Counted from the stretch's first letter, positions 9,260 to 31,472 are shown. The stretch: DNA of 32,000 nt from Nostoc minutum NIES-26 (GCA_003326215.1 LXQD01000205.1:65301-97300), one strand, 5' to 3'. Translations and numbers: made by a program. Notes: generated by a model from the sequence alone, not told the origin.

Positions 9260-9290
9260 TTCTCTTGCTCAATAGGTTTTTCTTTATCCT

Positions 9291-9399
9291 GTGCCCTCTG
9301 CGTCTACCGAAGTTTGCTCAACGGGGGGGAACCCCCGCACGCAACTTCTCTCTGTGGTTTATAAATTATTTAACCACAGAGGCACAGAGAACACAGAGA
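9291..9399. repeat. Composite of dispersed Nostoc-type repeats in the PKS-NRPS intergenic region
   Basis: gtgccctctgcgtctac resembles 18082-18100. caacgggggggaaccccc resembles 30118-30135. A 10-bp perfect hairpin ctctgtggtt/aaccacagag lies at 9350-9381, followed by three CACAGAG units at 9374-9399. Confidence 0.7.
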
Positions 9400-9459
9400 G
9401 AACAAAGGCTAGTTTTTAGGACTTTTGAATAAACATTTACTAGTATTTATTGGAGCATT

Positions 9460-9714
9460 ATGAGTCTTAACAGTTTACAACTACAAATCTTCACTTTCGT
9501 TGCTAAAATCACAGGACACGATGTAGAAGACTTAGAACCAGATATGTATCTGGAAAGCGATATGGGATTAGACTCTATCAAAATGGTAGAGCTACTCAAC
9601 ACCTTTATTCAAATGGTTCCACAGGAAAAACAAGCTGAATTTTTGCAAGTTGTACCCATGGAACAACTAATGCAACTCCAAACTTTAGCAGAAGTTCTAC
9701 AACTCGGTCAAACT
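9460..9714 (+). other. N-terminal carrier protein domain (probable ACP of the split PKS module 2)
   Basis: Motif SDMGLDSIKMVELLNTF, with the Ser codon tct at 9574-9576. The domain starts at residue 1, leaving no room for an N-terminal docking domain. Confidence 0.8.
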
Positions 9715-12700
9715 TGGATTGCTCCTCAAGAATCAGTAACACCTTCTCCAGCTATTTCTGCACCTCAAACTACCATTGTTTCTTCAACTATTTCTACACT
9801 TCAAACTACCACCGTTTCTTCAACTATTTCTGTACCTCAAACCGCCACTGTTTTCTCATCTCAAATAGAAGAAACAGCGCAAGAAGTCCCAATTCTTGAT
9901 GCTCAATATATATTCTTAGCTTCTCACTGGGCTGTATCTACTTGCAGTTTATGCTCTACATTACGGTTGAACGGGCCTTTTAATGCCCAAGTTTTTCGCC
10001 AAAGCTGGCAAGAATTGCTGACTCGTCATCCCATGCTGAGAGCATACTTTTCCATCCCAGCTGGAGCAACTAGTTTTAAAGATTATCGCTTGATGGTTCT
10101 GGATAATCCTACTCCTCCAGAAATTGCCATCACTGATTTAAGAAATTGCGATCGCCAAACTCAAGATTACCGCATTAACGAAGAAGTTCATCGTTGCATC
10201 AATTCCAGATGGGATATCTCACAGTGGCCCTTGCATAGATTCTTTGTCTTTCAACTCGAAGATGCAGTTTACGAAGTCTTCTTCACCAATCATCACCTGA
10301 TTTCTGATGGTTTGAGTAACCAAATTGTGTTACGTGACTTCATGGAGATTTACGGTGCAAGGCTAAACGGAACCCAGCCTATTTTACCTGCTGCGATCGC
10401 AGTTGCAGATTATCGGGCGATCGCTAACACGCTCAACACCTGGCAAAATCAACAAGCAGAACAATCTCTGCACAAATATTTGAGCAAGCAGGGCAAAGAT
10501 AAATTTCTCTGGAACCCCCAAGGCAGCACCGTCAAATATAACTCCACCAACATCCGCACTTTATCCTACCGTCTCAGCCGCAAAGTCACAGATAGCTTAA
10601 TTAGCCGTACCCGCGACTGGCGCTTACCACTCAATTCTTTAGTAGTTGGTGCTTATTTACGAACTGCTGCTAAGTTCTGTCAGTTACCCGAATCTGTTGT
10701 ATTGAACATTCCTACTAGCGGACGCATCTATCCTGGAGTAGATATTCCTAACGAAATTGGCTGTTTTGCTCAAAATCTCGCATTGAGTTTCAAAGCCCCA
10801 ACACCTGACGAAAACTGGTCTAATCTGCTGTATGGCATTCATTCAGAAATTCATACAAATCTAGCCGCAAATCATGACAACGCTCAAACTCGCCAAATGG
10901 GGATTTGGCTGCGAGAAAAAGTCGCACTCGAAGATGGCAAAATTCCCCCTACTGCTGCTAGTTTGATGCAAATGGGAATGAAAGCAAATTTATTCCTTTC
11001 TAACATGGGGCAAACCCACATCAAACCTGAGTATGGTTCCCTGAAAATTCTCAATTACCGAGCAGCTACCGTCACCAACGCGGGTACTGTAGACACATTG
11101 GTAGAGATATTCGATAACTGCTTGCACTTAAATACCAGCTACGATAGCAACTTCTTTAGTGAATATCTCATCGATACTTTTTGCAGGCAATTGATTGCAG
11201 ACATTGAAGAATTAGCATCTCTACAAATTCAGCCCCAGCAAATTACTCAGCCACTTTCACTGTCAGCAACAGATACTCAGTTCAAGTCCATCCTGCAACA
11301 AATAGCCACAGAAGTTTGCCATGACACCATCACTGATACAGCTTTAGATAAAGATTTAGTAGTAGATTTGGGATTAGATTCGCTAGAACTAATCCGCATC
11401 ATCACCAAATTAGAAAAGCAATTAGGTAAGGTAAATCGTCAAGCTTTACTATCTTGCAGAAGCTTGCGAGAAATGGTCTATACACTCAGCCACGGAGAAA
11501 TACCTGCAACAGTTGCAGCGACTCCCCAGCTAGTAGAAATACCTTACTTGGAAATTATCGAACAAGTTAAGCGTACTCCTGATGCAGTAGCGGTTATTGA
11601 TGGCAACATCAAACTCACTTATCAACAACTGCACAATCTTTCCAATCAAGTTGCTAATTACTTGAAAACTCAGGGAGTAAAACCAGGTGTTTTAGTAGGT
11701 ATTATGCTGAATCCTGGTTATCTGATGTGGGTGGGAATATTGGGTATTCTCAAGGCGGGAGGCGCTTACGTTCCTTTAGATCCTGCTTATCCTAACGAAC
11801 GAATTCAATACATACTAGAACATGCTGAAGTTCAAACTTTATTAAGCGAACATCAGCTGAATGCAAAATTAACAGAATGTCTAACAGCACAGTTACCCCT
11901 ATCAACTTTAGTATTCTTGGATGAGGGAGAAGCTTTAACTGGGACAACTTTAACCCAAGTTAACAAGAGTTCTTGGTCTAATAGTTCCGAACTAACTCCT
12001 GCTAGCGTCAATACTCCTGACGATTTGATGACAGTATTGTACACCTCCGGTTCTACAGGTCGTCCCAAGGGAGTGATGCTCAATCATCGGGGTTACATGA
12101 ACCGCCTCAACTGGATGCAAAAAGCCTTTCAGTTGTCGCCTGGGGAGCGAGTTGCCCAAAAAACATCCTGTTGCTTTGATATTTCAGTTTGGGAAATATT
12201 CTGGCCTCTCATGGTAGGCGCTACAGCTTGTCCTGTGAAGCGGGAAGTCGTAAGAAATCCTTGGAATTTAGTGCAGTGGATGCATGACACCCAAATTAAT
12301 ATCATGCATTTCGTTCCCTCCTTATTCGGAGAGTTCGTTACTGCTTTAGAGGAAGAAGCGTGGACATTTCCTCACTTGCGTTGGTTAGTGTTTAGCGGTG
12401 AAGCCTTACCTGTTTCTTTCATTCAACGTTGGTTAGACAAGCATGGAACCAAAGTTGGGTTAGCAAATCTTTACGGCCCCACGGAAGCATCTATAGACGT
12501 TACCGCTCATATCATTCCTAGTAGTGTCCGAGATGCAACCAGTATCCCCATTGGCAAAGCAATTGACAACGTTAATATTGTTCTCCTAGATGAACAAATG
12601 CAACCTGTGAAACAGGGTGAGTTGGGAGAACTGTGGATTGGTGGCGTACAATTGGCTCTTGGTTATCTTAAAAACCCTGAAAAAACAGAGCAATCTTTCC

Positions 12701-14517
12701 GCCCCAACCCCTTCGCAGACATCAACAGCAAATATCTCTACCGTACTGGCGATTTAGCGAAGCAATTACCCGATGGCAGTTTTGAATATCACGGACGAAT
12801 TGACCATCAAGTTAAAATACGCGGTTTCCGTGTGGAACTGGGAGAAATTGAGAATGTGCTTAACAGCCACCCTGATATTCGAGAAGTTGCTGTCGTCGCC
12901 CTAGACTATGGTTCGGGACAGAAAAAGCTAGTTGCTGGTATCGTTGGACAGCAGGTAGACAGCAAACAACTCAAAGAATATGTGGGACGCTGGGTACCTG
13001 ATTACATGATTCCGCACCGGATAGAATTGCTAGACAGCCTACCTAAAAATCATAACGGCAAACTGGATCGCCAAGCGATCGCAGCTATCCTCAACGGCGA
13101 AACCCCTTGTACAGACGCGATTAATCGCGTTTCTACCGAGGAATACGTACCTTTAGGCCCCGCACAGCGCTGGGTAATGAAATACTTTGAACCTCCATAT
13201 CAATGGACTGGTTACACCCGTTTTGTTTACCGCCATCCCCTAGAAATTAATGTTTTCAACCAAGCACTGAACTTGATTGTAGAACGCTATCCCGTTTTAC
13301 GTACAATATTTGTCCAAAAAGCAGGTCAATGGCAACAAAAAATCATTCAGCCAACTGAAGAATTAAAAGCAATTCTCTATGATGGTAGCCATTTAAAAGC
13401 TGAAAAACGAGATGAAGAAATTCGTACTTTAATTCAACAAGCTGGCGAACAACTGCAATTTGACCAATGGCCGTTACTGAAGGTAATTGTTGTCAAAATC
13501 AGTGATTCATGTTACGACATGGCATTTATTGGACATCATTTAATCGGTGATTTACTAAGCAACGGTTTAGTTTTCCAAGAGTTTTGGTTTACCTATACTC
13601 AAAATTTAGGCAACCCAAGTAATATCAATCTGACCACAACTAACAAGCCTTCTTACAATGACTATGTGCGTCTATTAACGGAAAAAGAAGCACAAGGAGA
13701 TTTGGCAAAGCACATTTATTATTGGTTGTACCAATTTCCTTCAGAAAAATCTGCTTTCCAAGTTCCTTTCGATTTTGAGAAAGGAGAAAATATCGAAGCT
13801 TCTGCTGCTCAAAAAAGATTTCTCCTGCCCAAACCTCAGAGCGAAATTTTACTAACCAAAGCCAAGGAGTATTATGTTTGCAACCTTTATTATCTTTTAC
13901 TTGCTCCTTTATATCGCCTCCTTGCTGAATGGAGTGGAAGACCTGGAGTAGTATTAAGTCATCGCAGTCACGGCAGAGATTTGGGCAATAATCACAGATT
14001 CTTTGACAGTGTTGGTAATTTCGCTGTTAATTATCCTATGGGTATCACTGTTGAAGAAAAAACCAGATGGGAGCCAATCATTAAGCAAATCAAACAACAA
14101 TTTGATTGGTTACCGATGAACGGGGTTACCTTTGATTGGTTAGGCGAAAAACTACCCAGTTATATGTACCCAGATAATCGTTTAACACCTGTGAGAGCTA
14201 ATTATTTGGGCAACCGTACCATTCCTACTTCTCAGGTATTCGATTTCATTGCAGAAGATTGGGATCGCCGCTTATCTCCTCCCCAACAAAAACGTACAAC
14301 TCTGTTAGAATTCTTCTTCACTCTTGTGAATGGTTCCTTAGAATTGGAGATTGAATATTCTACTAATTTCCATCTACCAGCAACTATTAATCGGTTAGGC
14401 GAACGATATTTAGAACTAGTTAATGACATGGTGTCAGTTGTACCTGTGACATCTGCAAATAATGGTCATAATCGTCTAAATAGTCGCAAAACAAGTTTGC
14501 AAGAGTTAACAGTGTAA
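9460..14517 (+). CDS. NRPS-like megasynthase with domain order carrier-C-carrier-A-C
   Basis: A 1685-aa ORF starts at ATG 9460, preceded by ttattggagcatt (GGAG). Domain motifs are listed in the sub-features below. No carrier follows the A domain and there is no TE or R domain. Confidence 0.92.
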   Translation: MSLNSLQLQIFTFVAKITGHDVEDLEPDMYLESDMGLDSIKMVELLNTFIQMVPQEKQAEFLQVVPMEQLMQLQTLAEVLQLGQTWIAPQESVTPSPAISAPQTTIVSSTISTLQTTTVSSTISVPQTATVFSSQIEETAQEVPILDAQYIFLASHWAVSTCSLCSTLRLNGPFNAQVFRQSWQELLTRHPMLRAYFSIPAGATSFKDYRLMVLDNPTPPEIAITDLRNCDRQTQDYRINEEVHRCINSRWDISQWPLHRFFVFQLEDAVYEVFFTNHHLISDGLSNQIVLRDFMEIYGARLNGTQPILPAAIAVADYRAIANTLNTWQNQQAEQSLHKYLSKQGKDKFLWNPQGSTVKYNSTNIRTLSYRLSRKVTDSLISRTRDWRLPLNSLVVGAYLRTAAKFCQLPESVVLNIPTSGRIYPGVDIPNEIGCFAQNLALSFKAPTPDENWSNLLYGIHSEIHTNLAANHDNAQTRQMGIWLREKVALEDGKIPPTAASLMQMGMKANLFLSNMGQTHIKPEYGSLKILNYRAATVTNAGTVDTLVEIFDNCLHLNTSYDSNFFSEYLIDTFCRQLIADIEELASLQIQPQQITQPLSLSATDTQFKSILQQIATEVCHDTITDTALDKDLVVDLGLDSLELIRIITKLEKQLGKVNRQALLSCRSLREMVYTLSHGEIPATVAATPQLVEIPYLEIIEQVKRTPDAVAVIDGNIKLTYQQLHNLSNQVANYLKTQGVKPGVLVGIMLNPGYLMWVGILGILKAGGAYVPLDPAYPNERIQYILEHAEVQTLLSEHQLNAKLTECLTAQLPLSTLVFLDEGEALTGTTLTQVNKSSWSNSSELTPASVNTPDDLMTVLYTSGSTGRPKGVMLNHRGYMNRLNWMQKAFQLSPGERVAQKTSCCFDISVWEIFWPLMVGATACPVKREVVRNPWNLVQWMHDTQINIMHFVPSLFGEFVTALEEEAWTFPHLRWLVFSGEALPVSFIQRWLDKHGTKVGLANLYGPTEASIDVTAHIIPSSVRDATSIPIGKAIDNVNIVLLDEQMQPVKQGELGELWIGGVQLALGYLKNPEKTEQSFRPNPFADINSKYLYRTGDLAKQLPDGSFEYHGRIDHQVKIRGFRVELGEIENVLNSHPDIREVAVVALDYGSGQKKLVAGIVGQQVDSKQLKEYVGRWVPDYMIPHRIELLDSLPKNHNGKLDRQAIAAILNGETPCTDAINRVSTEEYVPLGPAQRWVMKYFEPPYQWTGYTRFVYRHPLEINVFNQALNLIVERYPVLRTIFVQKAGQWQQKIIQPTEELKAILYDGSHLKAEKRDEEIRTLIQQAGEQLQFDQWPLLKVIVVKISDSCYDMAFIGHHLIGDLLSNGLVFQEFWFTYTQNLGNPSNINLTTTNKPSYNDYVRLLTEKEAQGDLAKHIYYWLYQFPSEKSAFQVPFDFEKGENIEASAAQKRFLLPKPQSEILLTKAKEYYVCNLYYLLLAPLYRLLAEWSGRPGVVLSHRSHGRDLGNNHRFFDSVGNFAVNYPMGITVEEKTRWEPIIKQIKQQFDWLPMNGVTFDWLGEKLPSYMYPDNRLTPVRANYLGNRTIPTSQVFDFIAEDWDRRLSPPQQKRTTLLEFFFTLVNGSLELEIEYSTNFHLPATINRLGERYLELVNDMVSVVPVTSANNGHNRLNSRKTSLQELTV
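9752..9859 (+). repeat. 3 x 36-nt tandem repeat encoding a 12-aa Ser/Thr-rich unit in the carrier-C linker
   Basis: The units lie at 9752-9787, 9788-9823 and 9824-9859, and units 1 and 2 differ at 4 of 36 positions. The peptide is AISAPQTTIVSS / TISTLQTTTVSS / TISVPQTATVFS. Confidence 0.9.
9886..11229 (+). other. Condensation domain 1
   Basis: A C1-like motif PILDAQYIFL is present. The catalytic motif HHLISDG lies at 10291-10311. Confidence 0.85.
11272..11493 (+). other. Carrier protein domain 2 (PCP), located upstream of the A domain
   Basis: Motif DLVVDLGLDSLELIRIITKLEKQLG, with the Ser codon tcg at 11380-11382. Confidence 0.8.
11542..13095 (+). other. Adenylation domain (amino-acid-type, Asp in FDxS retained)
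   Basis: Motifs LTYQQLHNLSNQVANYL, LYTSGSTGRPKGV, CCFDISVWEIF, NLYGPTEASID, YRTGDLA, GRIDHQVKIRGFRVELGEIE and NHNGKLDR. I did not attempt a specificity code by eye. Confidence 0.92.
13108..13136 (-). repeat. Dispersed palindromic repeat family A (GTAGAGACGCGATTAATCGCGTCTGTACA), in frame at the A/C junction
   Basis: tgtacagacgcgattaatcgcgtttctac is the reverse orientation of the 28249-28277 copy with one mismatch. It encodes CTDAINRVST. Confidence 0.85.
13141..14439 (+). other. C-terminal condensation-like domain (putative release or ester/amide-forming C)
   Basis: A C1-like motif VPLGPAQRWVM comes directly after the A domain. The catalytic motif is HHLIGDL at 13534-13554 (HHxxxD kept, Gly replaced by Leu). 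Confidence 0.75.
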
Positions 14518-17554: not shown

Positions 17555-17995
17555 ATGTCTACATCAATTCCAACACCAATTATGCCCGTATCCACTCAAC
17601 TAGGAACACCTGAAATTATGTCTTTAGCAACTCCAACAGCAATTATACCTGTACCGACTCAAATAGAAACTCCTGAAATTCAAAAAGGTTTTAATCTTTT
17701 AGGATTAAAAGTCTCAGATATTGAATTGAACGAGCTGAAACATGGCAATACCGTTTCATTAGAAAGCAGACGACTAAGTGAAATAGGTTCAGTATTGATA
17801 CTTGCAGAAGCTCTTTCATCATTGCATTCAGTTAAAAACATTACCTTCAAAGATTTACCAAAAGTTGTTACAGAATCCACAAATTGTTCTGGCATTCCCG
17901 TCCATCGATGGAATGATGATATACTTGGTAAGTGTTACCTGCTGCTCACTTTAGTAGATGGTCAACCTGCATTCAAGATATCATCTCAAAAGTAG
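17555..17995 (+). CDS. Hypothetical protein with an N-terminal tandem 21-aa Pro/Thr-rich duplication
   Basis: A 146-aa ORF with an ATG start. No recognisable family motifs and no signal peptide. It contains two 63-nt repeats at 17558-17683. Confidence 0.45.
   Translation: MSTSIPTPIMPVSTQLGTPEIMSLATPTAIIPVPTQIETPEIQKGFNLLGLKVSDIELNELKHGNTVSLESRRLSEIGSVLILAEALSSLHSVKNITFKDLPKVVTESTNCSGIPVHRWNDDILGKCYLLLTLVDGQPAFKISSQK
17558..17683 (+). repeat. 2 x 63-nt tandem duplication inside the hypothetical CDS
   Basis: 17558-17620 encodes STSIPTPIMPVSTQLGTPEIM and 17621-17683 encodes SLATPTAIIPVPTQIETPEIQ. Confidence 0.85.
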
Positions 17996-20735: not shown

Positions 20736-20792
20736 ATGACAGATTAGTTCAAAATGGTACATTACATCAGACTAATCACCAGCTTAAACATC

Positions 20793-21893
20793 ATGGAAAT
20801 TAACAAATTGCTGAATACTAACATCGAATCTTCAATGATTTTAATGACACCAATGCAGATCAAAGAGCAATTGCCTTTAACCAAAGTTGCTACAGAAACT
20901 GTATTGCAAGGTAGACAAGCTATACAAAATATACTTGACGGCAAAGATTCCCGAAAATTTATTATTGTTGGCCCTTGCTCTATCCATGATTTCGATGCTG
21001 CTTTAGAATATGCAGAAAAATTGAAAATTATTGCCGAACAGGTAAAAGACAAACTGTTGATTGTGATGAGAGTTTACTTTGAAAAACCTAGAACTACAAT
21101 TGGATGGAAAGGATTAATTAATGACCCCGACTTAGATGGCTCATTTAACATTCAAAAAGGATTATTTACGGCACGCAATTTGTTACTCAAAATTGCTGAA
21201 TTAAAATTACCTGCTGCTACAGAAGCTTTAGATCCTGTAACACCTCAATATTTCTCCGATTTAATTTCTTGGGCTGCAATTGGAGCGCGCACAATTGAAT
21301 CTCAAACCCATCGGGAAATGGCAAGCGGATTATCCATGCCAATAGGTTTTAAAAATGGTACTGATGGTAATATTCAAGTTGCTCTTGATGCTATTCAATC
21401 AGCTAATAAACTCCACCATTTTTTAGGAATTGACCAAAGAGGTCAAGTTTGTACATTTAAAGCAAAAGGAAATAACTACGGTCATATTATTTTACGTGGG
21501 GGAGATGGTAAACCGAATTTTGATGCACCTACTGTAGCTTGGGTAGAGAAGAAGCTAGAGGGACTTAAGCTACCTCAAAGAATCATCATTGACTGTAGTC
21601 ATGGAAATTCTTATAAAGATCATAAGCTACAGGCCACTGTCTTTAATAACGTTCTCCAGCAAATTGCAGATAGGAATAAATCAATTGTTGGCATGATGCT
21701 TGAGTCCAACTTGTATGAAGGAAATCAGAAGATACCTACAGATTTAAAAAAATTGAAGTATGGCGTATCTGTTACAGACAAATGTATTAGTTGGGAAGAA
21801 ACAGAAGAAATAATTCTATCTGCACATCACAAGTTAAGCAGAATGGTTGTATCTGGAACTCCTCTGCGAAACTTATTGACAACTGTAAGATAG
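20793..21893 (+). CDS. 3-deoxy-D-arabino-heptulosonate-7-phosphate (DAHP) synthase, type I-alpha (AroG/F/H-like)
   Basis: The protein is collinear with E. coli AroG as I recall it: IIVGPCSIHD, MRVYFEKPRTTIGWKGLINDP, IGARTIESQTHREMASGLSMPIGFKNGTDG, IILRGG and MLESNLYEGNQ. The ORF is open from 20754. ATG 20793 or ATG 20835 fits the AroG N-terminus better. Confidence 0.88.
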   Translation: MEINKLLNTNIESSMILMTPMQIKEQLPLTKVATETVLQGRQAIQNILDGKDSRKFIIVGPCSIHDFDAALEYAEKLKIIAEQVKDKLLIVMRVYFEKPRTTIGWKGLINDPDLDGSFNIQKGLFTARNLLLKIAELKLPAATEALDPVTPQYFSDLISWAAIGARTIESQTHREMASGLSMPIGFKNGTDGNIQVALDAIQSANKLHHFLGIDQRGQVCTFKAKGNNYGHIILRGGDGKPNFDAPTVAWVEKKLEGLKLPQRIIIDCSHGNSYKDHKLQATVFNNVLQQIADRNKSIVGMMLESNLYEGNQKIPTDLKKLKYGVSVTDKCISWEETEEIILSAHHKLSRMVVSGTPLRNLLTTVR

Positions 21894-22221: not shown

Positions 22222-22467
22222 ATGACTAGACAAGAAATCTTTAGCAAAGTTCAAGCTGTTGTCGCCGAAGAACTAGCCAATGAACAACAAAAAGTTACCC
22301 CAGATGCTAATCTAACTTTAGATTTAGGAGCAGATTACTTAGATTTAATCGCAATGTTTCAAGCATTAGAAGATGCTTTTGGTACAAAAATTCCTCCTAA
22401 GGAAGCAAAGCAACTTTTAACAGTACAAGAAGTTGTAAATTACATAGGTCAGACAGTTATTTTTTGA
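22222..22467 (+). CDS. Acyl carrier protein-like protein with Tyr in place of the phosphopantetheinyl Ser
   Basis: The 81-aa protein is collinear with E. coli AcpP. DLGADYLDLIAMFQALEDAF aligns with [20 protein letters not shown], and the codon is tac at 22336-22338. Confidence 0.8.
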   Translation: MTRQEIFSKVQAVVAEELANEQQKVTPDANLTLDLGADYLDLIAMFQALEDAFGTKIPPKEAKQLLTVQEVVNYIGQTVIF

Positions 22468-22476
22468 GTTTTAACC

Positions 22477-23733
22477 ATGATAAATAAAAATTTAAGAAGG
22501 GTTGTAGTTACAGGTATGGGAGCTATTACCCCTCTAGGAAATTCGGTGAAAGAGTATTGGGAAGGGTTGATTGCTGGACGCAGTGGTATTGATGCAATTA
22601 CCCACTTTGATGCTTCTTTGCATACTTGTAAAATCGCAGGTGAAGTTAGAGGCTTTGACCCTTACGACTATTTAGAACGCAAAGATGTCAAGCATATATC
22701 GCGTTTTTCTCAATTTGCAGTTAGTGCAAGTCTACAAGCGATCGCTAATGCTGGGTTAAAAATCAACGACTCAAATGCTACTCAAGTTGGCATTATTATA
22801 GGCAACGGCATCGGCGGTCTGCAAGTGATCGAGGAACAGCAAAAAATCTTCCTGGCTCAAGGGCCCAAACGCTGTAGTCCTTTTACAATTCCCATGACAA
22901 TCTCTAACATCGCAGCCGGACTCACAGCAATTTATACAGGGGCTAAAGGGCCGAACTTTTGCACTGTTACCGCTTGCGCTGCTGGTTCTAATGCGATTGG
23001 AGAAGCTTTTCGCTTAATTCAAACAGGCCAAGCTCAGGCAATGATTTGTGGTGGTACAGAAGCAGCGATTACACCTCTATGTATAGCTGCCTTCAGTTCT
23101 GCCAAAACCCTAACAACTAGAAATGACGAACCCACACGAGCCTCTCGTCCCTTTGATGCAGAGCGAAATGGCTTCGTCATGGGAGAAGGAGCGGGGATTC
23201 TACTCATAGAGGATTTAGAACATGCTCTGCGTCGGGGAGCTACTCATATTTATGCAGAGATTGTTGGCTATGGCCTGACTTGTGATGCTTACCATATAAC
23301 CACTCCCACACCCAGCGGTGAGGGAGCCACCAGAGCTATGGAACTAGCCTTAAAAGATGCTGGCTTGTTCCCCAACGAAGTCAGCTATATTAACGCTCAT
23401 GGCACTAGCACTGTAGCTAACGATGCCACAGAAACCTTAGCTATTAAGCAAGCTTTAGGAAACCGTGCCCTCGAAATTCCTATTAGTTCCACCAAATCCA
23501 TGATTGGCCATCTTTTAGGTGCATCTGGAGGCGTTGAAGCTATTGCCACAGTCTTAACAGTAGGTCTTGATTTAATTCCACCAACAATCAATTTAGATCG
23601 GCCAGATCCAAAGTGCGATTTAGACTATGTTCCTTACCAAAGCAGAAGTCAAAGAGTAGATGTTGCTCTTTCTAACTCTTTTGGCTTTGGAGGACATAAC
23701 GCTTCTTTAGCTTTTAAAAAGTTTGAAGACTAA
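22477..23733 (+). CDS. fabF: Beta-ketoacyl-ACP synthase II (FabF-like), cluster-embedded paralogue
   Basis: Motifs RVVVTGMGAITPLG, TVTACAAGSNAIGEA (Cys), NAHGTSTVANDATE (His), KSMIGHLLGASG (His) and FGFGGHNASLAF. Confidence 0.9.
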   Translation: MINKNLRRVVVTGMGAITPLGNSVKEYWEGLIAGRSGIDAITHFDASLHTCKIAGEVRGFDPYDYLERKDVKHISRFSQFAVSASLQAIANAGLKINDSNATQVGIIIGNGIGGLQVIEEQQKIFLAQGPKRCSPFTIPMTISNIAAGLTAIYTGAKGPNFCTVTACAAGSNAIGEAFRLIQTGQAQAMICGGTEAAITPLCIAAFSSAKTLTTRNDEPTRASRPFDAERNGFVMGEGAGILLIEDLEHALRRGATHIYAEIVGYGLTCDAYHITTPTPSGEGATRAMELALKDAGLFPNEVSYINAHGTSTVANDATETLAIKQALGNRALEIPISSTKSMIGHLLGASGGVEAIATVLTVGLDLIPPTINLDRPDPKCDLDYVPYQSRSQRVDVALSNSFGFGGHNASLAFKKFED

Positions 23734-23849: not shown

Positions 23850-24860
23850 ATGAAATCCTTAGTAAGACAAGGTGTTGTTCTCACGGGGACTGGCTCTGCG
23901 GTTCCAGATACGTGCTTGGACAATCATCAACTCAACCAAATGGTAGTTACTTCTGATGATTGGATAACGACTCGCACAGGAATTCGCCGCCGCCATCTTC
24001 TTGCGCCGAAGAATTCGCTCACAGCTATGGCTACTGAAGCTGCTCAAAAGGCTATAGCGATGGCAGGTATAGCACCACAAAACTTAGATTTGATTATTTT
24101 AGCTACATCGACTCCTGATGATTTGTTTGGGAATGCTAGTCAAATTCAAGCTCGACTGGGAGCTACCCAAGCCGTAGCTTTTGATTTGACAGCAGCTTGC
24201 TCTGGTTTTGTGTTTGGTTTGGTAACTGCCGCCCAATTTATGCGGACTGGAGCCTATCAAAATGTTCTCCTCATCGGTGCTGAAGTGCTTTCTCGGTGGG
24301 TAGATTGGTCTGATAGACGTACTTGCGTTCTCTTTGGCGATGGAGCAGGAGCAGTAGTTTTACAAGCAAGTGAATACGATTGTCTCTTGGGTTTTCAACT
24401 TCATACTGATGGTACGCAAAATCAATATCTAAAATTGGGATTTCAAGAACAAGAGAAACTACTAATTGATAGTATCAGGGTTGGTCAAGGTACATACCAA
24501 CCAATTGCAATGAACGGACAAGAAGTTTATCGCTTTGCCGTTCAAAAAGTCCCTGAAGTTATTGAAAAGGCACTATACCGAGCCGGATTAGATATTGAAC
24601 AAGTAGACTGGCTATTGATGCATCAAGCCAATCAGCGAATTTTAAATGCTGTGGCCGAACGTTTAAATCTTCCCGAAGAAAAAATCATTAGCAACGTAGC
24701 AAACTATGGAAACACTTCTGCTGCTTCAATTCCTCTAGCTTTGGATGAAGCTGTTCGTCGAGGGCAAATCAAACCACATGATATTATCGCTCTGGCTGGC
24801 TTTGGCGCTGGGCTTTCTTGGGGTGCTGCGATTTTTGAATGGGGTTCTCTTAATTCGTAA
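23850..24860 (+). CDS. fabH: Beta-ketoacyl-ACP synthase III (FabH-like) with an intact Cys-His-Asn triad
   Basis: Motifs GTGSAVP, DLTAACSGFVFGL (Cys), LMHQANQRIL (His), NYGNTSAASIPLAL (Asn) and GFGAGLSWG. The last three codons and the stop lie inside an AATTCGT heptamer array. Confidence 0.9.
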   Translation: MKSLVRQGVVLTGTGSAVPDTCLDNHQLNQMVVTSDDWITTRTGIRRRHLLAPKNSLTAMATEAAQKAIAMAGIAPQNLDLIILATSTPDDLFGNASQIQARLGATQAVAFDLTAACSGFVFGLVTAAQFMRTGAYQNVLLIGAEVLSRWVDWSDRRTCVLFGDGAGAVVLQASEYDCLLGFQLHTDGTQNQYLKLGFQEQEKLLIDSIRVGQGTYQPIAMNGQEVYRFAVQKVPEVIEKALYRAGLDIEQVDWLLMHQANQRILNAVAERLNLPEEKIISNVANYGNTSAASIPLALDEAVRRGQIKPHDIIALAGFGAGLSWGAAIFEWGSLNS

Positions 24861-24973: not shown

Positions 24974-26698
24974 ATGAATACACTATCTCTACAACAGAAC
25001 ATCACGCGTTCTTGGCAAGTGCCTTTTACTGGCAATTCAAATTCAGACAATTTAAATTCAATTGTAACTGTAGGCGATCGCAATCTGACTATAGACGAGG
25101 TGGTGAATGTAGCCCGTCATGGCACACAGGTGCGTTTAACTGATAATGTAGATATCCTAAAAGGCGTGCAAGCATCGTGTGACTACATCGATCGTGCAGT
25201 TGAAACAGGCCAACCAATATACGGAGTTACATCTGGCTTTGGTGGAATGGCACATGTTGTCATTTCCCGCGAACAAGCAGCCGAACTTCAAACTAACTTA
25301 ATTTGGTTTCTAAAATCTGGAGCGGGTGCGAGATTGCCGTTGGCAGATGTCCGCGCCGCCATGCTTTTGCGTGCCAATTCACACTTATATGGTGCATCGG
25401 GTATACGACTCGAATTGATTCAACGAATTGAAACTTTTTTAAATGCTGGTGTGACACCGTATGTCTATGAGTTTGGCTCTATTGGTGCTAGTGGCGATTT
25501 AGTACCTTTGTCTTATATTACTGGGGCGCTCATAGGTTTAGATCCCAGCTTTACAGTTGACTTCGACGGTAGAGAAATGGATGCTCCTACAGCGCTGTGT
25601 CGGCTGGGTTTGCAGCCTTTGCAACTGCAACCGAAAGAAGGCTTGGCAATGATGAACGGCACTTCTGTGATGACAGCGATCGCAGGTAATTGCGTGTATG
25701 ATGCTAGAGTCTTACTTGCACTAGCAATGGGCGTACATGCCTTAGCCATCCAAGGTTTATACGGGACAAATCAATCGTTCCACCCGTTTATCCATAAACA
25801 CAAACCCCATCCCGGTCAACTGTGGGCAGCAGACCAGATGTTTTCCCTGCTTAAAGGTTCATACTTAGTCCGTGAAGAATCAGATGGCAAGCATGAATAT
25901 CGCGGTCAAGAACTAATCCAAGATCGTTATTCTCTGCGCTGCCTTCCACAGTATATGGGGCCAATTGTTGACGGAATATCGGAGATTGCCGAGCAAATCG
26001 AGCTAGAAATGAACTCAGTCACCGATAATCCATTGATTGATGCCAACAAACAAGCTAGTTATCATGGTGGCAATTTTCTCGGACAGTATGTAGGCGTGAC
26101 AATGGATCGCTTGCGCTACTATATAGGGCTATTAGCTAAACACATCGACGTACAGATCGCGCTGCTTGTTTCACCAGAGTTTAGCAACGGACTCCCACCT
26201 TCTTTAGTTGGCAATCTAGAGCGTAAAGTCAACATGGGACTTAAAGGTTTGCAAATTAGTGGAAACTCGATCATGCCACTATTGACCTTCTATGGAAATT
26301 CTTTAGCCGATCGCTTTCCTACCCATGCCGAACAATTTAATCAAAACATTAACAGCCAAGGATATGTTTCAGCAAATCTGACACGTCGTTCTGTAGACAT
26401 ATTTCAATATTATATGGCGATCGCGCTGATGTTTGGAGTCCAAGCCGCTGACTTGCGTACATATAAAATGACTGGTCACTACGATGCACGTACATGCCTT
26501 TCTACCGGAACTTTAGAGTTGTATGCGGCAGTTCGTCAAGTAGTTGGACATCAGCCAACATCTCTGCGTCCATACATTTGGAACGATAACGAACAGTCCT
26601 TGGACGAGCATATCGCCTTGATTTCAGCTGATATCGCTGCTGGCGGTCTAATTGTGCAAGCAGTTAGCGATATTTTGTCAAGCTTGAAGTCAATATAA
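24974..26698 (+). CDS. pal: Phenylalanine ammonia-lyase (MIO-dependent, cyanobacterial short PAL type)
   Basis: The MIO triad ASG sits in GSIGASGDLVPLSYITG (25487-25495). The Phe-selectivity pair F-L sits in NLIWFLKSG (25307-12). The protein is near-collinear over its whole length with the Nostoc punctiforme and Anabaena variabilis PAL sequences as I remember them. Confidence 0.92.
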   Translation: MNTLSLQQNITRSWQVPFTGNSNSDNLNSIVTVGDRNLTIDEVVNVARHGTQVRLTDNVDILKGVQASCDYIDRAVETGQPIYGVTSGFGGMAHVVISREQAAELQTNLIWFLKSGAGARLPLADVRAAMLLRANSHLYGASGIRLELIQRIETFLNAGVTPYVYEFGSIGASGDLVPLSYITGALIGLDPSFTVDFDGREMDAPTALCRLGLQPLQLQPKEGLAMMNGTSVMTAIAGNCVYDARVLLALAMGVHALAIQGLYGTNQSFHPFIHKHKPHPGQLWAADQMFSLLKGSYLVREESDGKHEYRGQELIQDRYSLRCLPQYMGPIVDGISEIAEQIELEMNSVTDNPLIDANKQASYHGGNFLGQYVGVTMDRLRYYIGLLAKHIDVQIALLVSPEFSNGLPPSLVGNLERKVNMGLKGLQISGNSIMPLLTFYGNSLADRFPTHAEQFNQNINSQGYVSANLTRRSVDIFQYYMAIALMFGVQAADLRTYKMTGHYDARTCLSTGTLELYAAVRQVVGHQPTSLRPYIWNDNEQSLDEHIALISADIAAGGLIVQAVSDILSSLKSI

Positions 26699-26744
26699 TT
26701 CGTAATTTCATGCAGACAATCTCGGCTAGAAAGGAGATTTAATA

Positions 26745-28295
26745 ATGAATATTGCACAAAATGTAGAACTTGGTTGTTATCTTTTTCCTAATAAACCAGC
26801 GCTCATCTTTGAAGAAGAATCTTTCACATACAAAGACTTGAACGAAAGAGCAAATCGTGTTGCTAACGGTCTACGCAGTTTGGGAATTAGGCGTGGAGAG
26901 CGTGTAGCTTTGTTTTTGCCAAACATTCCAGAATTTGTCTTTTCTTATCTTGGCATTCTGAAAATTGGTGCGATTGCTGTCTCAGTTAACGTCATGCTCA
27001 AAAGTGATGAAGTAAGCTATATTCTCAATGATTGTGCTGCCAAAGTAATCATTACAACAGAGTCTCAAAGTGAGTATGTGCAAGAGGCAGATTTAATCGC
27101 CTTACAACACATTTTAATTACAGAAGGCACAGCTAAAAAAGGTATTAGTCTAACAGAACTAATGGCAAAAGCTTCTCCTGAAGCACACGCAGTGGAAATG
27201 GCTCGCCACGCTCCTGCAAGTATCCTCTACACATCAGGCACTACAGGCTTTCCCAAAGGAGCTACACTTTCTCATGGCAATGTTCTTTTCAACAGCTATA
27301 GTGCTAACTGTTGTTATCGTATTCAAAAGAGCGATCGCTTACTACTTTACTTACCTTTATTCCATTGTTTTGGTCAAAATGCAATTCTCAACGCTAGTCT
27401 ATCTGCTTGTGCAACCCTGATATTACAACGCCGATTTGACTTAGAACAAGTCTTGAAAACCATCACTGTACATCAAGTGACAATGTTATTTGGAGTACCG
27501 ACAGTATTCATTAAACTGCTGAATATGGATACATCTGACTGTAACCTGAAAAATATTCGCTATTACTTTTCAGCAGCAGCACCCATGCCTTCTGAAGTAG
27601 CACAGCGTTGGTATCAAAAGTATGGAATTGTAATTCATGAAGGGTATGGTTTAACAGAAACATCGCCATTTGCTGCTTATAATCACAACTTGAAATACAA
27701 ACTAGGTAGCGTTGGTACTTCCATTGCAAATGTAGAAATAAAGATTGTTGATGGTAATGGTTATGAAGTACAAGCAGGCGAGTTAGGTGAAATAGTTATT
27801 AAAGGGCCAAACGTCATGCTTGGTTATTGGAATCGTCCTTTTGAAACAGCAGAGGTTATTAAAAATGGTTGGTTCCATACTGGTGATATTGGTCGGATGG
27901 ATGAAGAAGGTTTTTTCTACATCGTTGACCGCTTAAAAGACATGATTATTTTCTCTGGATTTAAAGTTTACCCAACAGAAGTTGAAAATATTATTTATCA
28001 ACATCCAGCGGTTGCTGAAGTAGCTGTATATGGAGTTGACGATCGCCTCAAAGGCGAGATTGTCAAAGCAAATATTGTCCTTAAAACTGGTCATCCAATA
28101 ACAGAACAACAAATCATTGACTTTTGTTATCAAAAGATGGCAGCTTACAAAATTCCCCGCGTAATTAAGTTTGTAGATTCAATTCCCAAAAACTCAACTG
28201 GTAAAGTATTGAAGCGAGTTTTACGTCAGGAATCAACAGTAGTCAGTAGTAGAGACGCGATTAATCGCGTCTGTACAGGAAGTAGTTGTCAGTAG
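26745..28295 (+). CDS. Aryl/acyl-CoA ligase (4-coumarate/cinnamate-CoA ligase-like)
   Basis: Motifs LYTSGTTGFPKGATLSHGN, GYGLTETS, HTGDIGRMDEEGFFYIVDRLKDMIIFSGFKVYPTEVE and PKNSTGKVLKR. The C-terminal ~19 aa (VVSSRDAINRVCTGSSCQ) are encoded by a dispersed repeat. Confidence 0.88.
   Translation: MNIAQNVELGCYLFPNKPALIFEEESFTYKDLNERANRVANGLRSLGIRRGERVALFLPNIPEFVFSYLGILKIGAIAVSVNVMLKSDEVSYILNDCAAKVIITTESQSEYVQEADLIALQHILITEGTAKKGISLTELMAKASPEAHAVEMARHAPASILYTSGTTGFPKGATLSHGNVLFNSYSANCCYRIQKSDRLLLYLPLFHCFGQNAILNASLSACATLILQRRFDLEQVLKTITVHQVTMLFGVPTVFIKLLNMDTSDCNLKNIRYYFSAAAPMPSEVAQRWYQKYGIVIHEGYGLTETSPFAAYNHNLKYKLGSVGTSIANVEIKIVDGNGYEVQAGELGEIVIKGPNVMLGYWNRPFETAEVIKNGWFHTGDIGRMDEEGFFYIVDRLKDMIIFSGFKVYPTEVENIIYQHPAVAEVAVYGVDDRLKGEIVKANIVLKTGHPITEQQIIDFCYQKMAAYKIPRVIKFVDSIPKNSTGKVLKRVLRQESTVVSSRDAINRVCTGSSCQ
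28237..28278 (+). repeat. Family A repeat (CAGTAGT x2 plus GTAGAGACGCGATTAATCGCGTCTGTACAG) forming the 3' end of the CoA-ligase CDS
   Basis: The sequence is cagtagtcagtagtagagacgcgattaatcgcgtctgtacag. The core agacgcgattaatcgcgtct is a perfect 20-bp palindrome. Confidence 0.85.
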
Positions 28296-30094
28296 TATTT
28301 TCCCCTCAGCTCTGTTACCCCCAATCCCTAAAGATCGTGAATTTAAAAAGTATTACCAAAACCTTAAATCCATTGGAGCAGTTGCAAAAAAGTACTGCTA
28401 TCCAACCCAATCTACTTTCACTTGACCAGACAAGCGATTTAACTGTTGCAGCAGCTTTAGTCAAGACACTGGAAGATTTAGGAGTCCGCTATGCTTTTGG
28501 CCTGTTCGGAGGCGGAATCACACCCCTTGTTGCTAGCTTAGAGCAAAGTTCAATCCAAGTACTGCAATTTCGTCATGAAGCCGGAGCCGCATTTGCAGCT
28601 ATTGAGTCTTACTTTGCTAGCGGACACCCAGTTGTAGTATTCAGCACAACTGGCCCAGGTATTACTAACGCTTTGACAGGATTGTTTGCTGCTCGTTGGG
28701 AAGGAGCAAAAATCATTTTCCTCTCGCCTTGCACCTCTGCAACACAACGCGGACGCTGGGCTTTTCAAGAAACCAGTCTGTACACCATGTCTAATACAGG
28801 CATTTTTACTTCAGGAACATTATTTCATTACGCCACCACTGTTGAATGTAGCTCGGAACTGCCAAAAATTGCTCGTAAGCTCTTGGCAGGTATGGGAAAA
28901 CCAGGGGGCTTTGTAGCTCATATCAGTATCCCTAGAGCAATTCAGACAAGTTCGCTGATGACACCATTACCTCGCGTGAATTTCTCTCAATCTTCGGTAA
29001 CTGCTGGGGAAGATGCTATCTGCAAGTCTTTACAACTGCTGTGTGAGGGGCCATTTGCCATTTGGGTTGGTTTCGGTGCTAGAGGTGCAGCCGCGGAAAT
29101 CCGCCAACTTGCTGAGAGAACCAAAGCTGCGGTGATGTCATCCTCTCGTGGTAAGGGGATATTTCCTGAAGATCATCCTCAGTTTGTGGGTGTTACAGGC
29201 TTCGGAGGACATAGCTCTGTTGTGAAGTATATGCAAGAGCATCGTCCTTTACGCGTACTGGTTTTGGGAACTCGGCTAGGTGAATTTACCTCGTTTTGGA
29301 GTCCGGTTATGGTTCCTTCACGCGGGTTTATACACGTAGATATTGACCCGGAAGTGCCAGGAACTGCTTATCCAGCAGCGGAGACATTTGCCGTCCACTC
29401 CGATATTGGAGCTTACGTTAAAGCATTGCTTAAGTATTTTCCACAAACTTATGGTTTGTCACCAATATTACCTTTACCTCGTGGCGATCGCCAATTAATC
29501 AAGCCCTATGGAGAAGGTCTAGTACGCCCTGAATTATTGATGGATGCAATTCAAAGGGTAATTGTTGAAAAAAGCGATGCAGTAGTAATGACCGAGGCAG
29601 GTAACTCCTTTGCTTGGGGAACCCACACGCTCAGATTTACTACACCAGGTCGTTACCGGGTAAGTACTGGGTTTGGCTCGATGGGGCACGCTGGCACGGG
29701 TATTTTAGGTGCTGCACTGGCGCGAAATCGTAAGGCGATCGCCATTCTTGGTGATGGTGCTATGCTCATGAACAGCGAAATTACTACCGCTGTCAAACAC
29801 AAAATTCCTGCCGTCTGGATTGTACTCAATGATGCACGTTACAACATGTGCGATCAAGGCATGAATATGGAAGGATTCTATGGTGTAGATGCAGAGATAT
29901 CCACCGCAGATTTCGTGATGATTGCCCGTGGTATGGGAGCTGATGGCATTCGTGTAGACAGCGAGTTTGATGTCGAAGCAGCCTTAGAAACAGCTCTAGC
30001 CTCTACTGTACCCTTTGTTGTTGACGTAGCGATCGACCCGACACGACCAGCACCAATTGGCACTCGAATTAACAGTTTAATCAGTAGTCAGTAG
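28286..30094 (+). CDS. Thiamine-diphosphate-dependent enzyme (acetolactate-synthase/carboligase family)
   Basis: An N-terminal Pyr-domain segment LVKTLEDLGVRYAFGLFGG and the catalytic Glu context FRHEAGAAFAA are present. The ThDP motif is GDGAMLMNSEITTAVKHKIPAVWIVLND, with GDG at 29750-29758. There is no in-frame ATG near the 5' end. The start could be TTG 28286 (overlapping the upstream stop), GTG 28337, or TTG 28373/28382. Confidence 0.85.
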   Translation: MSVVFSPQLCYPQSLKIVNLKSITKTLNPLEQLQKSTAIQPNLLSLDQTSDLTVAAALVKTLEDLGVRYAFGLFGGGITPLVASLEQSSIQVLQFRHEAGAAFAAIESYFASGHPVVVFSTTGPGITNALTGLFAARWEGAKIIFLSPCTSATQRGRWAFQETSLYTMSNTGIFTSGTLFHYATTVECSSELPKIARKLLAGMGKPGGFVAHISIPRAIQTSSLMTPLPRVNFSQSSVTAGEDAICKSLQLLCEGPFAIWVGFGARGAAAEIRQLAERTKAAVMSSSRGKGIFPEDHPQFVGVTGFGGHSSVVKYMQEHRPLRVLVLGTRLGEFTSFWSPVMVPSRGFIHVDIDPEVPGTAYPAAETFAVHSDIGAYVKALLKYFPQTYGLSPILPLPRGDRQLIKPYGEGLVRPELLMDAIQRVIVEKSDAVVMTEAGNSFAWGTHTLRFTTPGRYRVSTGFGSMGHAGTGILGAALARNRKAIAILGDGAMLMNSEITTAVKHKIPAVWIVLNDARYNMCDQGMNMEGFYGVDAEISTADFVMIARGMGADGIRVDSEFDVEAALETALASTVPFVVDVAIDPTRPAPIGTRINSLISSQ

Positions 30095-30252
30095 TAGAGA
30101 CGCGACGCCAGTCGCTACAACGGGGGGAACCCCCCTTCGGGTGACGCTCGCAGGCTCGCTAACGCTACGCTAACACAGTTGCCTGCGGAGGGAAACCCTC
30201 CCGCAGCACTGATTCACCGCAACGCGCTGGCTCATTAATCGCGTCTGTACAG
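30082..30252 (+). mobile_element. Family A repeat split by a nested 129-bp insertion (MITE-in-repeat)
   Basis: The left half cagtagtcagtagtagagacgcga lies at 30082-30105 and the right half ttaatcgcgtctgtacag at 30235-30252. Together they reconstitute the intact 28237-28278 copy exactly. The insert at 30106-30234 has its own hairpins, ggggggaacccccc and ctgcggagggaaaccctcccgcag. Confidence 0.75.
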
Positions 30253-30341
30253 TTGTTATCAGATTAATTGCGTCTGTTGTCATTAGTTATTCTCCGTGTC
30301 CTCGCGTCCCCTCATTACCCCACAACCAAAGGAAATTTCCC

Positions 30342-31472
30342 ATGATCTATCCACCCGTAGGTATTCGCTCAATTGCAATTAATTTTCCTAGTGTCATTCG
30401 CACTAATGATTATTGGCGCAAAAATTACCCTGATTTAGTTGCAATGGCAGAGGAAAAAAGTCTATCAAAGGTGTTTTCGCCTGCTGATTCTACCCCCAGC
30501 AATCAGTTTGAACAGGTAATGACACCGTATCTCAAAGACCCATTCCGTGGTACTATTGAGCGCCGAGTTCTCGGTTCGGATGAGTCATCGCTAACACTAG
30601 AGTATCAAGCAGCCAAGAATGCGATCGCAGCGGCAAATCTATCTCCAGAAGAAATCGATTTGATGATTGTTGCTTCACTCTGGCCGGAAAATATTCTACC
30701 TGGCAATGCCGCCTTTCTTGCTGGTCAACTCGGTCTGCGCGGTGCTGCTTGGAATTTGGATTCAACCTGTTCTAATGCTATGGTTGCTCTGCAAAACGCC
30801 ACTGCACTGGTGCGAACTGGAGAGTATCGCAATGTGCTGGTTGTGGTTTCTTGCACTTACTCTCGCTTTACCGATGAAAACGATACCCTCTCGTGGTTTT
30901 TCGGTGACGGTGCTGGAGCTTTTGTGGTTGCGCCGCTAAAACCAAGCCAGGGAATTCTTGGCAGCAAAATTGTGAATACATCTGCAACTTGTGGCACCTT
31001 CTATAATGAATTAACTATGGATGCTGAGGGCAAGCCAAGGATGTTAATTAGAGCAGCAAAAAATACTAACAGAGTACTGAGTGAGACTGCTGTGGATTAC
31101 CTACGCGAGTGCTGCTTGGGTGCTGTTGCTGCTGCTGGTGTTACCCTAGAGCAAATTCAATTTTTTGCTTTTAATACACCCACTGCCTGGTATTCGCATC
31201 TCTGCACGCAGGCGTTAGGCATCGAACCAGAGCGGACGATTAACCTTTACCCCTACTATGCAAACATTGGGCCAATGCTACCCATCGCCAATCTTTACCA
31301 CGGCGCACAATTAGGCAAGATTCACGAAAACGACTTAGTTCTCGTTTACACTGTTGGTTCTGTATCTAATGCTGCTGCAACTGTAATGCGCTGGGGCGAT
31401 GTTGCTCTAAGTACAGCACCCGCAACCTCAGCTAACCTGACAGATGTGTTGCCGAAACTGGTGCTAGTCTAA
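30342..31472 (+). CDS. KAS III (FabH)-like acyltransferase, candidate furanolide-synthase-type enzyme
   Basis: The fold is FabH-like, with the Cys in NLDSTCSNAMVAL (codon 30768-30770) and FFGDGAGAF. The HQAN His position reads AFNTP, and the NYGNTSAAS region reads YYANIGPML. Confidence 0.85.
   Translation: MIYPPVGIRSIAINFPSVIRTNDYWRKNYPDLVAMAEEKSLSKVFSPADSTPSNQFEQVMTPYLKDPFRGTIERRVLGSDESSLTLEYQAAKNAIAAANLSPEEIDLMIVASLWPENILPGNAAFLAGQLGLRGAAWNLDSTCSNAMVALQNATALVRTGEYRNVLVVVSCTYSRFTDENDTLSWFFGDGAGAFVVAPLKPSQGILGSKIVNTSATCGTFYNELTMDAEGKPRMLIRAAKNTNRVLSETAVDYLRECCLGAVAAAGVTLEQIQFFAFNTPTAWYSHLCTQALGIEPERTINLYPYYANIGPMLPIANLYHGAQLGKIHENDLVLVYTVGSVSNAAATVMRWGDVALSTAPATSANLTDVLPKLVLV

Follow-up and report, generated by a model that had tools for sequence, protein, structure and literature searches.

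A KAS III-fold protein with a Cys-Asn-Asn triad in Nostoc minutum NIES-26 as a probable furanolide synthase of the CybF type

Introduction

Two genes for FabH-like proteins lie in a 32,000-nucleotide stretch of DNA from Nostoc minutum NIES-26, analysed here as a whole and referred to as the window, and only one of the two products has the Cys-His-Asn triad of a canonical FabH. The question that this locus raises is what the other protein does, as a preliminary description of the window had proposed that it keeps the Cys of the FabH fold, has exchanged the decarboxylation-activating His for Asn, and would transfer acyl groups to O or C nucleophiles rather than condense them with malonyl-ACP.

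CybF was reportedly described in 2022 by D'Agostino, Gulder et al. as the furanolide synthase of the cyanobacterin cluster of Tolypothrix sp. PCC 9009. The enzyme is annotated as a 3-oxoacyl-ACP synthase and was modelled on FabH structures, and in this strain cybE and cybF measure 1872 bp and 1131 bp, respectively (PMC8777810). Together with CybE and a CoA ligase, CybF makes furanolides in vitro from two 2-keto acids and an aryl-acrylic acid (PMC12395478, PMC13288894). The enzyme first O-acylates an acyloin, then performs a formal Morita-Baylis-Hillman reaction and last a 1,4-hydride shift (PMC12395478, PMC13288894), with coumaroyl- or cinnamoyl-CoA as the acyl source in the first step (PMC12395478, PMC13288894, PMC8777810) and an enzyme nucleophile invoked for the second (PMC8777810). 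The furanolide clusters of cyanobacteria (cyb, ncl and mac) have a four-gene signature of aromatic ammonia-lyase, CoA ligase, ThDP enzyme and furanolide synthase, corresponding to CybBCEF (PMC13288894). A gene for DAHP synthase often accompanies these four (PMC13288894, Table S1), as macA does in the mac cluster (PMC13288894).

Results

Residue mapping and fold of the enzyme

The open reading frame of the gene under study is real, and the N-terminus of its product (MIYPPVGIRS) is kept among homologs; of the named proteins, one from Dendronalium sp. is the closest. Both the ACP_syn_III and the ACP_syn_III_C domains of Pfam match the protein. FabH models match it with E-values of 1e-32 to 1e-34, but its scores of 118 bits on NF006829 (cut-off 249) and 110.5 bits on TIGR00747 (cut-off 292.1) do not reach either curated FabH threshold. 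The other FabH-like protein of the window (23850-24860) passes FabH models and has the Cys-His-Asn triad, and it is therefore a valid internal reference, as the preliminary description had assumed.

Alignment of the N. minutum enzyme with FabH placed Cys143 (codon 30768-30770, in the motif STCSNA) on the FabH Cys, Asn278 (codon 31173-31175, FAFNTPTAWY) on the FabH His (LMHQANQRIL) and Asn308 (codon 31263-31265, YYANIGP) on the FabH Asn (NYGNTSA), so that the triad reads Cys-Asn-Asn and not Cys-His-Asn. Four methods, namely phmmer, MAFFT, hhalign and the earlier alignment by eye, were concordant in this mapping, and the codon coordinates first given for the retained Cys and the replaced His proved exact. 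With phmmer, Asn278 fell on the His of all three solved FabH structures compared (2ebd, 8vd9 and 1ub7) and Asn308 on the Asn of two of the three, the ungapped alignment with 2ebd being off by one residue; we keep the Asn-on-Asn placement because the remaining alignments and the invariance of Asn308 favour it; the Asn stands in the changed context that had been described. The same mapping was supported by a MAFFT alignment of 23 sequences and by profile-profile comparison of 34 family members with five cyanobacterial FabH proteins (hhalign probability 99.8%, E 1.3e-30). Clustering of Cys143, Asn278 and Asn308 in space would be expected from the alignment, as distinct from measured distances.

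From the family alignment, an AlphaFold2 model was obtained (pLDDT 88, pTM 0.90), and its best matches in the PDB were FabH and PqsC, with query-normalised TM of 0.70-0.79, Foldseek E-values of about 1e-26 and identities of 17-26%. The proposed FabH fold was upheld by these matches and by the Pfam domains, with an acyl-accepting Cys143 that is invariant in the family alignments, and the alignments placed no His at the decarboxylation position. Relative to FabH (E. coli 1hn9, Aquifex 2ebd and the FabH of the window), the fold is common (target-normalised TM 0.84-0.88), as are the Cys and Asn positions and the motif GDGAGA, whereas identity is 23-29%, Asn278 stands in for the His, and an insertion of about 40 residues near the N-terminus (roughly residues 25-65, after the first strands, with lower pLDDT) characterises the family and is missing from FabH. 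PqsC, a component of PqsBC in Pseudomonas quinolone synthesis, gave the highest query-normalised TM (0.75-0.79) and is likewise KAS III-like with an altered triad and a partner that is not malonyl, but its identity to the N. minutum enzyme is just 18-19%. PqsC retains the His, lacks the Asn and functions as a heterodimer with PqsB. No solved structure of the family was returned by the PDB fold search with the model, and no paper on a CybF structure or on CybF mutagenesis was found in a literature search.

Cys-Asn-Asn across the family

A homolog search across 1.8 billion cluster representatives (50% identity) gave 143 clusters at E < 1e-30, and 101 full-length representatives from the best 150 were aligned to survey the triad. 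Cys-Asn-Asn, with the motifs NTPTA and YANIGP, was the commonest pattern (37 of the 101), while in other representatives the place of the His was taken by Ser, Pro, Thr, Tyr or Ala. His itself was seen there only in representatives with no more than about 36% identity to the N. minutum enzyme, becoming frequent only at about 32% or below, and an invariant or near-invariant His was found nowhere in the family alignments.

The preliminary description had regarded loss of the His as typical of KAS III-like acyltransferases, and the two best-studied of these enzymes speak against this view. CerJ and ChlB3 use a Cys-His-Asp triad and the H295N variant of CerJ is inactive (PMC9573744); since both enzymes need the His, its loss is no general mark of acyl transfer in the KAS III fold. 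Enzymes of the CerJ/ChlB3/DpsC type resemble the N. minutum enzyme in using the KAS III fold for acyl transfer with a Cys as acyl carrier (PMC9573744), but theirs is a Cys(Ser)-His-Asp arrangement and they build no ring. CerJ was compared through its published triad; the two triad positions aligned here beside the Cys are both Asn in the N. minutum enzyme. As judged from the alignments, Cys-Asn-Asn is a hallmark of the clade to which this enzyme belongs and not of KAS III-like acyltransferases generally.

Some members of the family depart from the usual architecture. A locus in the metagenome-assembled genome UBA2566 (L019:9989-12394) has PAL, ligase and ThDP enzyme followed by a tandem pair of KAS III-like genes, of which the second copy is long-branched with a His at the FabH His position (FVFHAPMAWY). 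Longer proteins of 503-724 aa (L012:9989-11512, and proteins P0125 and P0152) suggest that the KAS III-like domain can be fused or extended at its C-terminus. The name '3-oxoacyl-ACP synthase III family protein' is all that more than 1,300 homologs carry; no model specific for furanolide synthases exists in Pfam or NCBIfam, and databases label the family 'FabH family' because it has neither such a curated model nor a solved structure.

Gene neighbourhood in the window

All genes of the window lie on the + strand, in the order megasynthase, NRPS, five small genes and type II thioesterase, followed by a cassette that runs from DAHP synthase to the KAS III-like gene (Table 1).

Table 1. Features of the window, with positions counted from its first nucleotide.
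Feature	Position	Strand	Evidence or remark
FAAL-ACP-KS-AT-KR-ACP-KS megasynthase (cut by window start) and NRPS	2-14517	+	
DAHP synthase (aromatic precursor supply)	20754-21893	+	as in the cyb and mac clusters
ACP-like protein, DLGADYLDL, Tyr at the expected phosphopantetheine Ser	22222-22467	+	PP-binding domain
FabF-type KAS II	22477-23733	+	TIGR03150, 624 bits (cut-off 494)
Canonical FabH (Cys-His-Asn)	23850-24860	+	NF006829, 420 bits (cut-off 249); TIGR00747, 380 bits
Phenylalanine ammonia-lyase (PAL)	24974-26698	+	match to 2nyf, 1097 bits, ~87% identity
Aryl-acid CoA ligase (CybC-like)	26745-28295	+	AMP-binding domains
ScyA-related ThDP enzyme (CybE-like acyloin synthase)	28286-30094	+	NF035927, 1013 bits (cut-off 1000)
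Probable KAS III-fold furanolide synthase (CybF/Ncl type)	30342-31472	+	376 aa

The KAS III-like gene is the last of a PAL, CoA ligase, ScyA-like ThDP enzyme and KAS III-like series. The ThDP gene, whose product is predicted to make an alpha-hydroxy-beta-keto acid acceptor, directly adjoins the KAS III-like homolog in 22 of 25 cyanobacterial loci. The CoA ligase, with a predicted role in supplying cinnamoyl-CoA, holds the identical position in the loci L001-L003, L019, L077 and L078 and in the N. punctiforme locus. By sequence comparison, the lyase is orthologous to the PAL crystallised from N. punctiforme (2nyf); it reads WFLK (a Phe-Leu pair), whereas the cyb-type lyase reads WYHK (a Tyr-His pair). 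DAHP synthase is also the first gene of L077 and L078.

An ACP-like protein, a FabF and a FabH are encoded between DAHP synthase and PAL, and each of the five ncl-type loci (the window, L001-L003 and N. punctiforme) has kept all three, FabF-type KAS II among them; the set is absent from the cyb-type and Scytonema hofmannii clusters. The expected phosphopantetheine Ser is replaced by Tyr in the ACP-like protein of all five loci (the window, L001:1630-1872, L002:1537-1773, L003:1625-1861 and N. punctiforme L086). Its presence in all five argues that the Tyr is a conserved feature, not a sequencing error or recent mutation, and because it takes the place of the phosphopantetheine Ser, the protein probably cannot carry an acyl chain.

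The FabH of the window is a second, cluster-borne copy, 69% identical to a FabH on another contig of the same genome (G000:C295:17264-18142). The latter adjoins a 293-aa gene with an acyltransferase-domain match, which we read as fabD-like, and its FabH as the housekeeping copy. With a true FabH in the window and this further copy on contig C295, the KAS III-like enzyme was ruled out as the organism's own FabH.

For the FAAL-PKS and NRPS genes upstream, a syntenic and equally spaced arrangement was seen in a single metagenome-assembled genome (G001), whose NRPS is 90% identical. Nostoc sp. C117 does not have them beside the cassette, and a search of about 19 kb around the N. punctiforme cassette returned no match to the upstream PKS/NRPS beyond the CoA ligase. 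Given synteny in G001 only, they are unlikely to be an obligatory part of the pathway. Two adjacent yet separate subclusters have a precedent in N. punctiforme, where the nvl tetronate-type PKS lies beside ncl (PMC9324945), and the upstream genes of the window are probably a neighbouring subcluster of this kind, standing to the cassette as nvl to ncl. A 146-aa open reading frame at 17555-17995 (orf146), without a Pfam or NCBIfam match, has counterparts of 77-79% identity in N. punctiforme and Nostoc sp. C117, where it immediately precedes the ACP-like gene, and may be a component of the ncl-type cassette.

Relation to the cyb, mac and ncl clusters

The genes from 24974 to 31472 carry the four-gene furanolide signature in the order of macB, macC, macE and macF, which is also that of L077 and L078. 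The second of these loci comes from Tolypothrix sp. NIES-4075, and its 11 genes agree in layout with what has been published on cybA-K: DAHP synthase, lyase, ligase, O-methyltransferase, ThDP enzyme (1872 bp) and KAS III-like gene (1131 bp), followed by genes for a NAD-binding protein, a Rieske protein, a FAD halogenase, a methyltransferase and a tyrosinase. Comparison with CybF was made through this counterpart, from a sister strain with architecture and gene lengths identical to those of PCC 9009. The KAS III-like protein of L078 (P0015) was 71% identical to the N. minutum enzyme over 360 residues without a gap, and Cys-Asn-Asn is common to both. In a maximum-likelihood tree, the N. minutum enzyme and its three closest relatives were sister to P0015 and a Scytonema hofmannii protein from a cluster similar to the cyb type (support 100/96), apart from a clade of loci with a ThDP enzyme as the only neighbour (18 entries, 100/100).

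Like cybF, the N. minutum gene is KAS III-like, measures 1131 bp and comes after a ScyA-like ThDP gene, and its cluster also encodes an aromatic ammonia-lyase, a CoA ligase and DAHP synthase; MacF of Nodularia sp. NIES-3585 is a further close relative. The cyb cluster differs in that its lyase is a TAL (Tyr-His) and that of N. minutum a PAL (Phe-Leu), and in that the N. minutum locus lacks the halogenase, methyltransferases, Rieske protein and tyrosinase but has the ACP-like/FabF/FabH set that cyb lacks.

A second related locus is the ncl subcluster of Nostoc punctiforme PCC 73102. A search with the first 166 residues of 2nyf in 389 genomes of the family returned one genome at 100% (G179), with a PAL locus in the same order as the window: orf146, ACP-like protein, FabF, FabH, PAL, ligase, ThDP enzyme and KAS III-like protein. 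The N. punctiforme PAL is NclD of the nostoclide subcluster and a proven PAL (PMC9324945); the letter D would suit PAL if ncl starts at the ACP-like gene, since PAL would then stand fourth. Nostoclides N1 and N2, described as butenolide relatives of cyanobacterin, were assigned to ncl on the basis of homology, transcription and regulator overexpression (PMC9324945). In ncl, the KAS III-like protein (PMC9324945) is a true ortholog of the N. minutum enzyme, with identical gene order, 82-86% identity and the same Cys-Asn-Asn, and its cluster has the same Tyr-for-Ser change in the ACP-like protein. The window differs from ncl in having DAHP synthase, type II thioesterase and FAAL-PKS plus NRPS upstream, as does one metagenome-assembled genome. 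Taken with the cyb comparison, we consider it very likely that the N. minutum enzyme is a furanolide (butenolide) synthase of the CybF type and the ortholog of the last enzyme of ncl. Furanolide synthase has already been described, and this enzyme adds a member to that group, not a new mechanism.

Proposed mechanism

The cassette would supply both substrates of such a synthase. PAL would form cinnamate and the CoA ligase cinnamoyl-CoA, the donor we infer for the enzyme because the lyase has the PAL pair and its ortholog is a proven PAL (PMC9324945); as the lyase is of the PAL and not the TAL type, cinnamoyl-CoA is expected rather than coumaroyl-CoA. The ScyA-like ThDP enzyme would couple two 2-keto acids, one of them probably phenylpyruvate, to an acyloin acid.

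The KAS III-like enzyme would then load the cinnamoyl group, most likely on Cys143 as in all KAS III enzymes, and move it onto the acyloin hydroxyl, an O-acylation of the kind shown for CybF. Addition of an enzyme nucleophile to the enoyl ester would yield an enolate, whose attack on the ketone would form a C-C bond of the Morita-Baylis-Hillman type, and a 1,4-hydride shift would give an alpha-benzyl-gamma-benzylidene butenolide core. Cys143 is thus assigned the part of acyl carrier and possibly of Michael donor too, while Asn278 and Asn308 would serve as hydrogen-bond donors, probably polarising the carbonyl of the thioester or ester and stabilising the enolate. As no malonyl unit is decarboxylated in this scheme, the FabH His would be dispensable. 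O-acylation, the C-C bond and the hydride shift have been shown for CybF only, and for the N. minutum enzyme they are predictions from its relationship to CybF.

The function put forward at the outset therefore largely stands. Transfer of a cinnamoyl group to an O nucleophile, with no malonyl condensation, agrees with CybF orthology, but acyl transfer is not all that the published enzyme does: C-C bond formation of the Morita-Baylis-Hillman type and a 1,4-hydride shift follow, and these build the butenolide ring.

Discussion

One part of the cassette that does not fit readily into a CybF-type reaction is the trio between DAHP synthase and PAL. The three-enzyme route as published makes no use of FabF, FabH or the serine-less ACP-like protein, and the real acyl donor could differ from cinnamoyl-CoA. 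The enzyme might then still be a synthase of the furanolide type, but one that takes a chain made or extended by the FabH/FabF/ACP-like set, such as a cinnamoyl-primed or enoyl intermediate, and the product would differ from known nostoclides and maculalactones. The kept position of the trio in the window, L001-L003 and N. punctiforme speaks for such a donor, as does its absence where the cyb-type and S. hofmannii clusters are concerned. Nostoclide-type structures, however, are not known to need more than the four core enzymes. The Tyr in place of the phosphopantetheine Ser in five of five loci also stands against it, as do nostoclides N1 and N2, cyanobacterin-related butenolides from the orthologous subcluster (PMC9324945), and we regard a different donor as improbable.

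A step lower in probability, and distinctly unlikely in our view, is that the enzyme only esterifies the acyloin, in the manner of the O-acyltransferases CerJ and ChlB3, and leaves ring closure to occur spontaneously or through another protein. A KAS III fold with a conserved Cys and no decarboxylation His would suit this, and acyl transfer comes first even in CybF. Against it, CybE, CybF and a CoA ligase suffice for furanolides in vitro (PMC12395478), the N. minutum enzyme is 71% identical to the counterpart of CybF, and its Cys-Asn-Asn differs from the Cys-His-Asp of CerJ and ChlB3 (PMC9573744) in a family with no invariant His.

That the enzyme is instead a divergent KAS III still condensing with malonyl-ACP, Asn standing in for the His, is scarcely credible: Asn308, the Cys, the overall fold and the E-values of the FabH models are as such an enzyme would have them, but its scores on those models are far under the cut-offs, the His is missing across its clade, a genuine FabH lies 5.5 kb upstream with another on contig C295, and the enzyme is orthologous to a characterised non-Claisen enzyme.

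As a CybF-type enzyme, the N. minutum protein offers one more Phe-based (PAL-type) furanolide synthase for the CybE/CybF chemo-enzymatic platform. A Cys-Asn-Asn enzyme beside a canonical FabH in one locus also makes C143, N278 and N308 clear targets for mutagenesis, which could show how a Claisen condensing scaffold became a catalyst of the Morita-Baylis-Hillman type, and a curated furanolide synthase model would fix the annotation of the homologs.

The same genome holds a second pair of ThDP and KAS III-like genes (G000:C1:71623-72702; L072:9630-12445), with 64% and 61% identity to those of the window. No lyase or ligase was found near this pair on contig C1, and a large WD40-repeat gene adjoins it. 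The pair falls in the clade of loci with ThDP and KAS III-like genes only (100/100), and among Nostoc, Calothrix and Scytonema loci no other context is as common; most of the Nostocales loci sampled have this pair alone, and neither a lyase nor a CoA ligase lies within 10 kb.

The known furanolides include cyanobacterin, nostoclides, maculalactones and enhygrolides, and comprise photosynthesis inhibitors and antibiotics; in N. punctiforme they act as cell-density mediators that turn on other biosynthetic clusters (PMC9324945, PMC12395478). Our wider suggestion is a tentative one, possible but short of probable: that the ThDP-paired Cys-Asn-Asn family is far larger than the known furanolide clusters, that its pair-only clade may make widespread, unrecognised butenolide-like metabolites or signals from a different donor, and that in ncl-type loci FabF, FabH and the serine-less ACP-like protein may supply the synthase or modulate it by a route beyond the three enzymes published so far.
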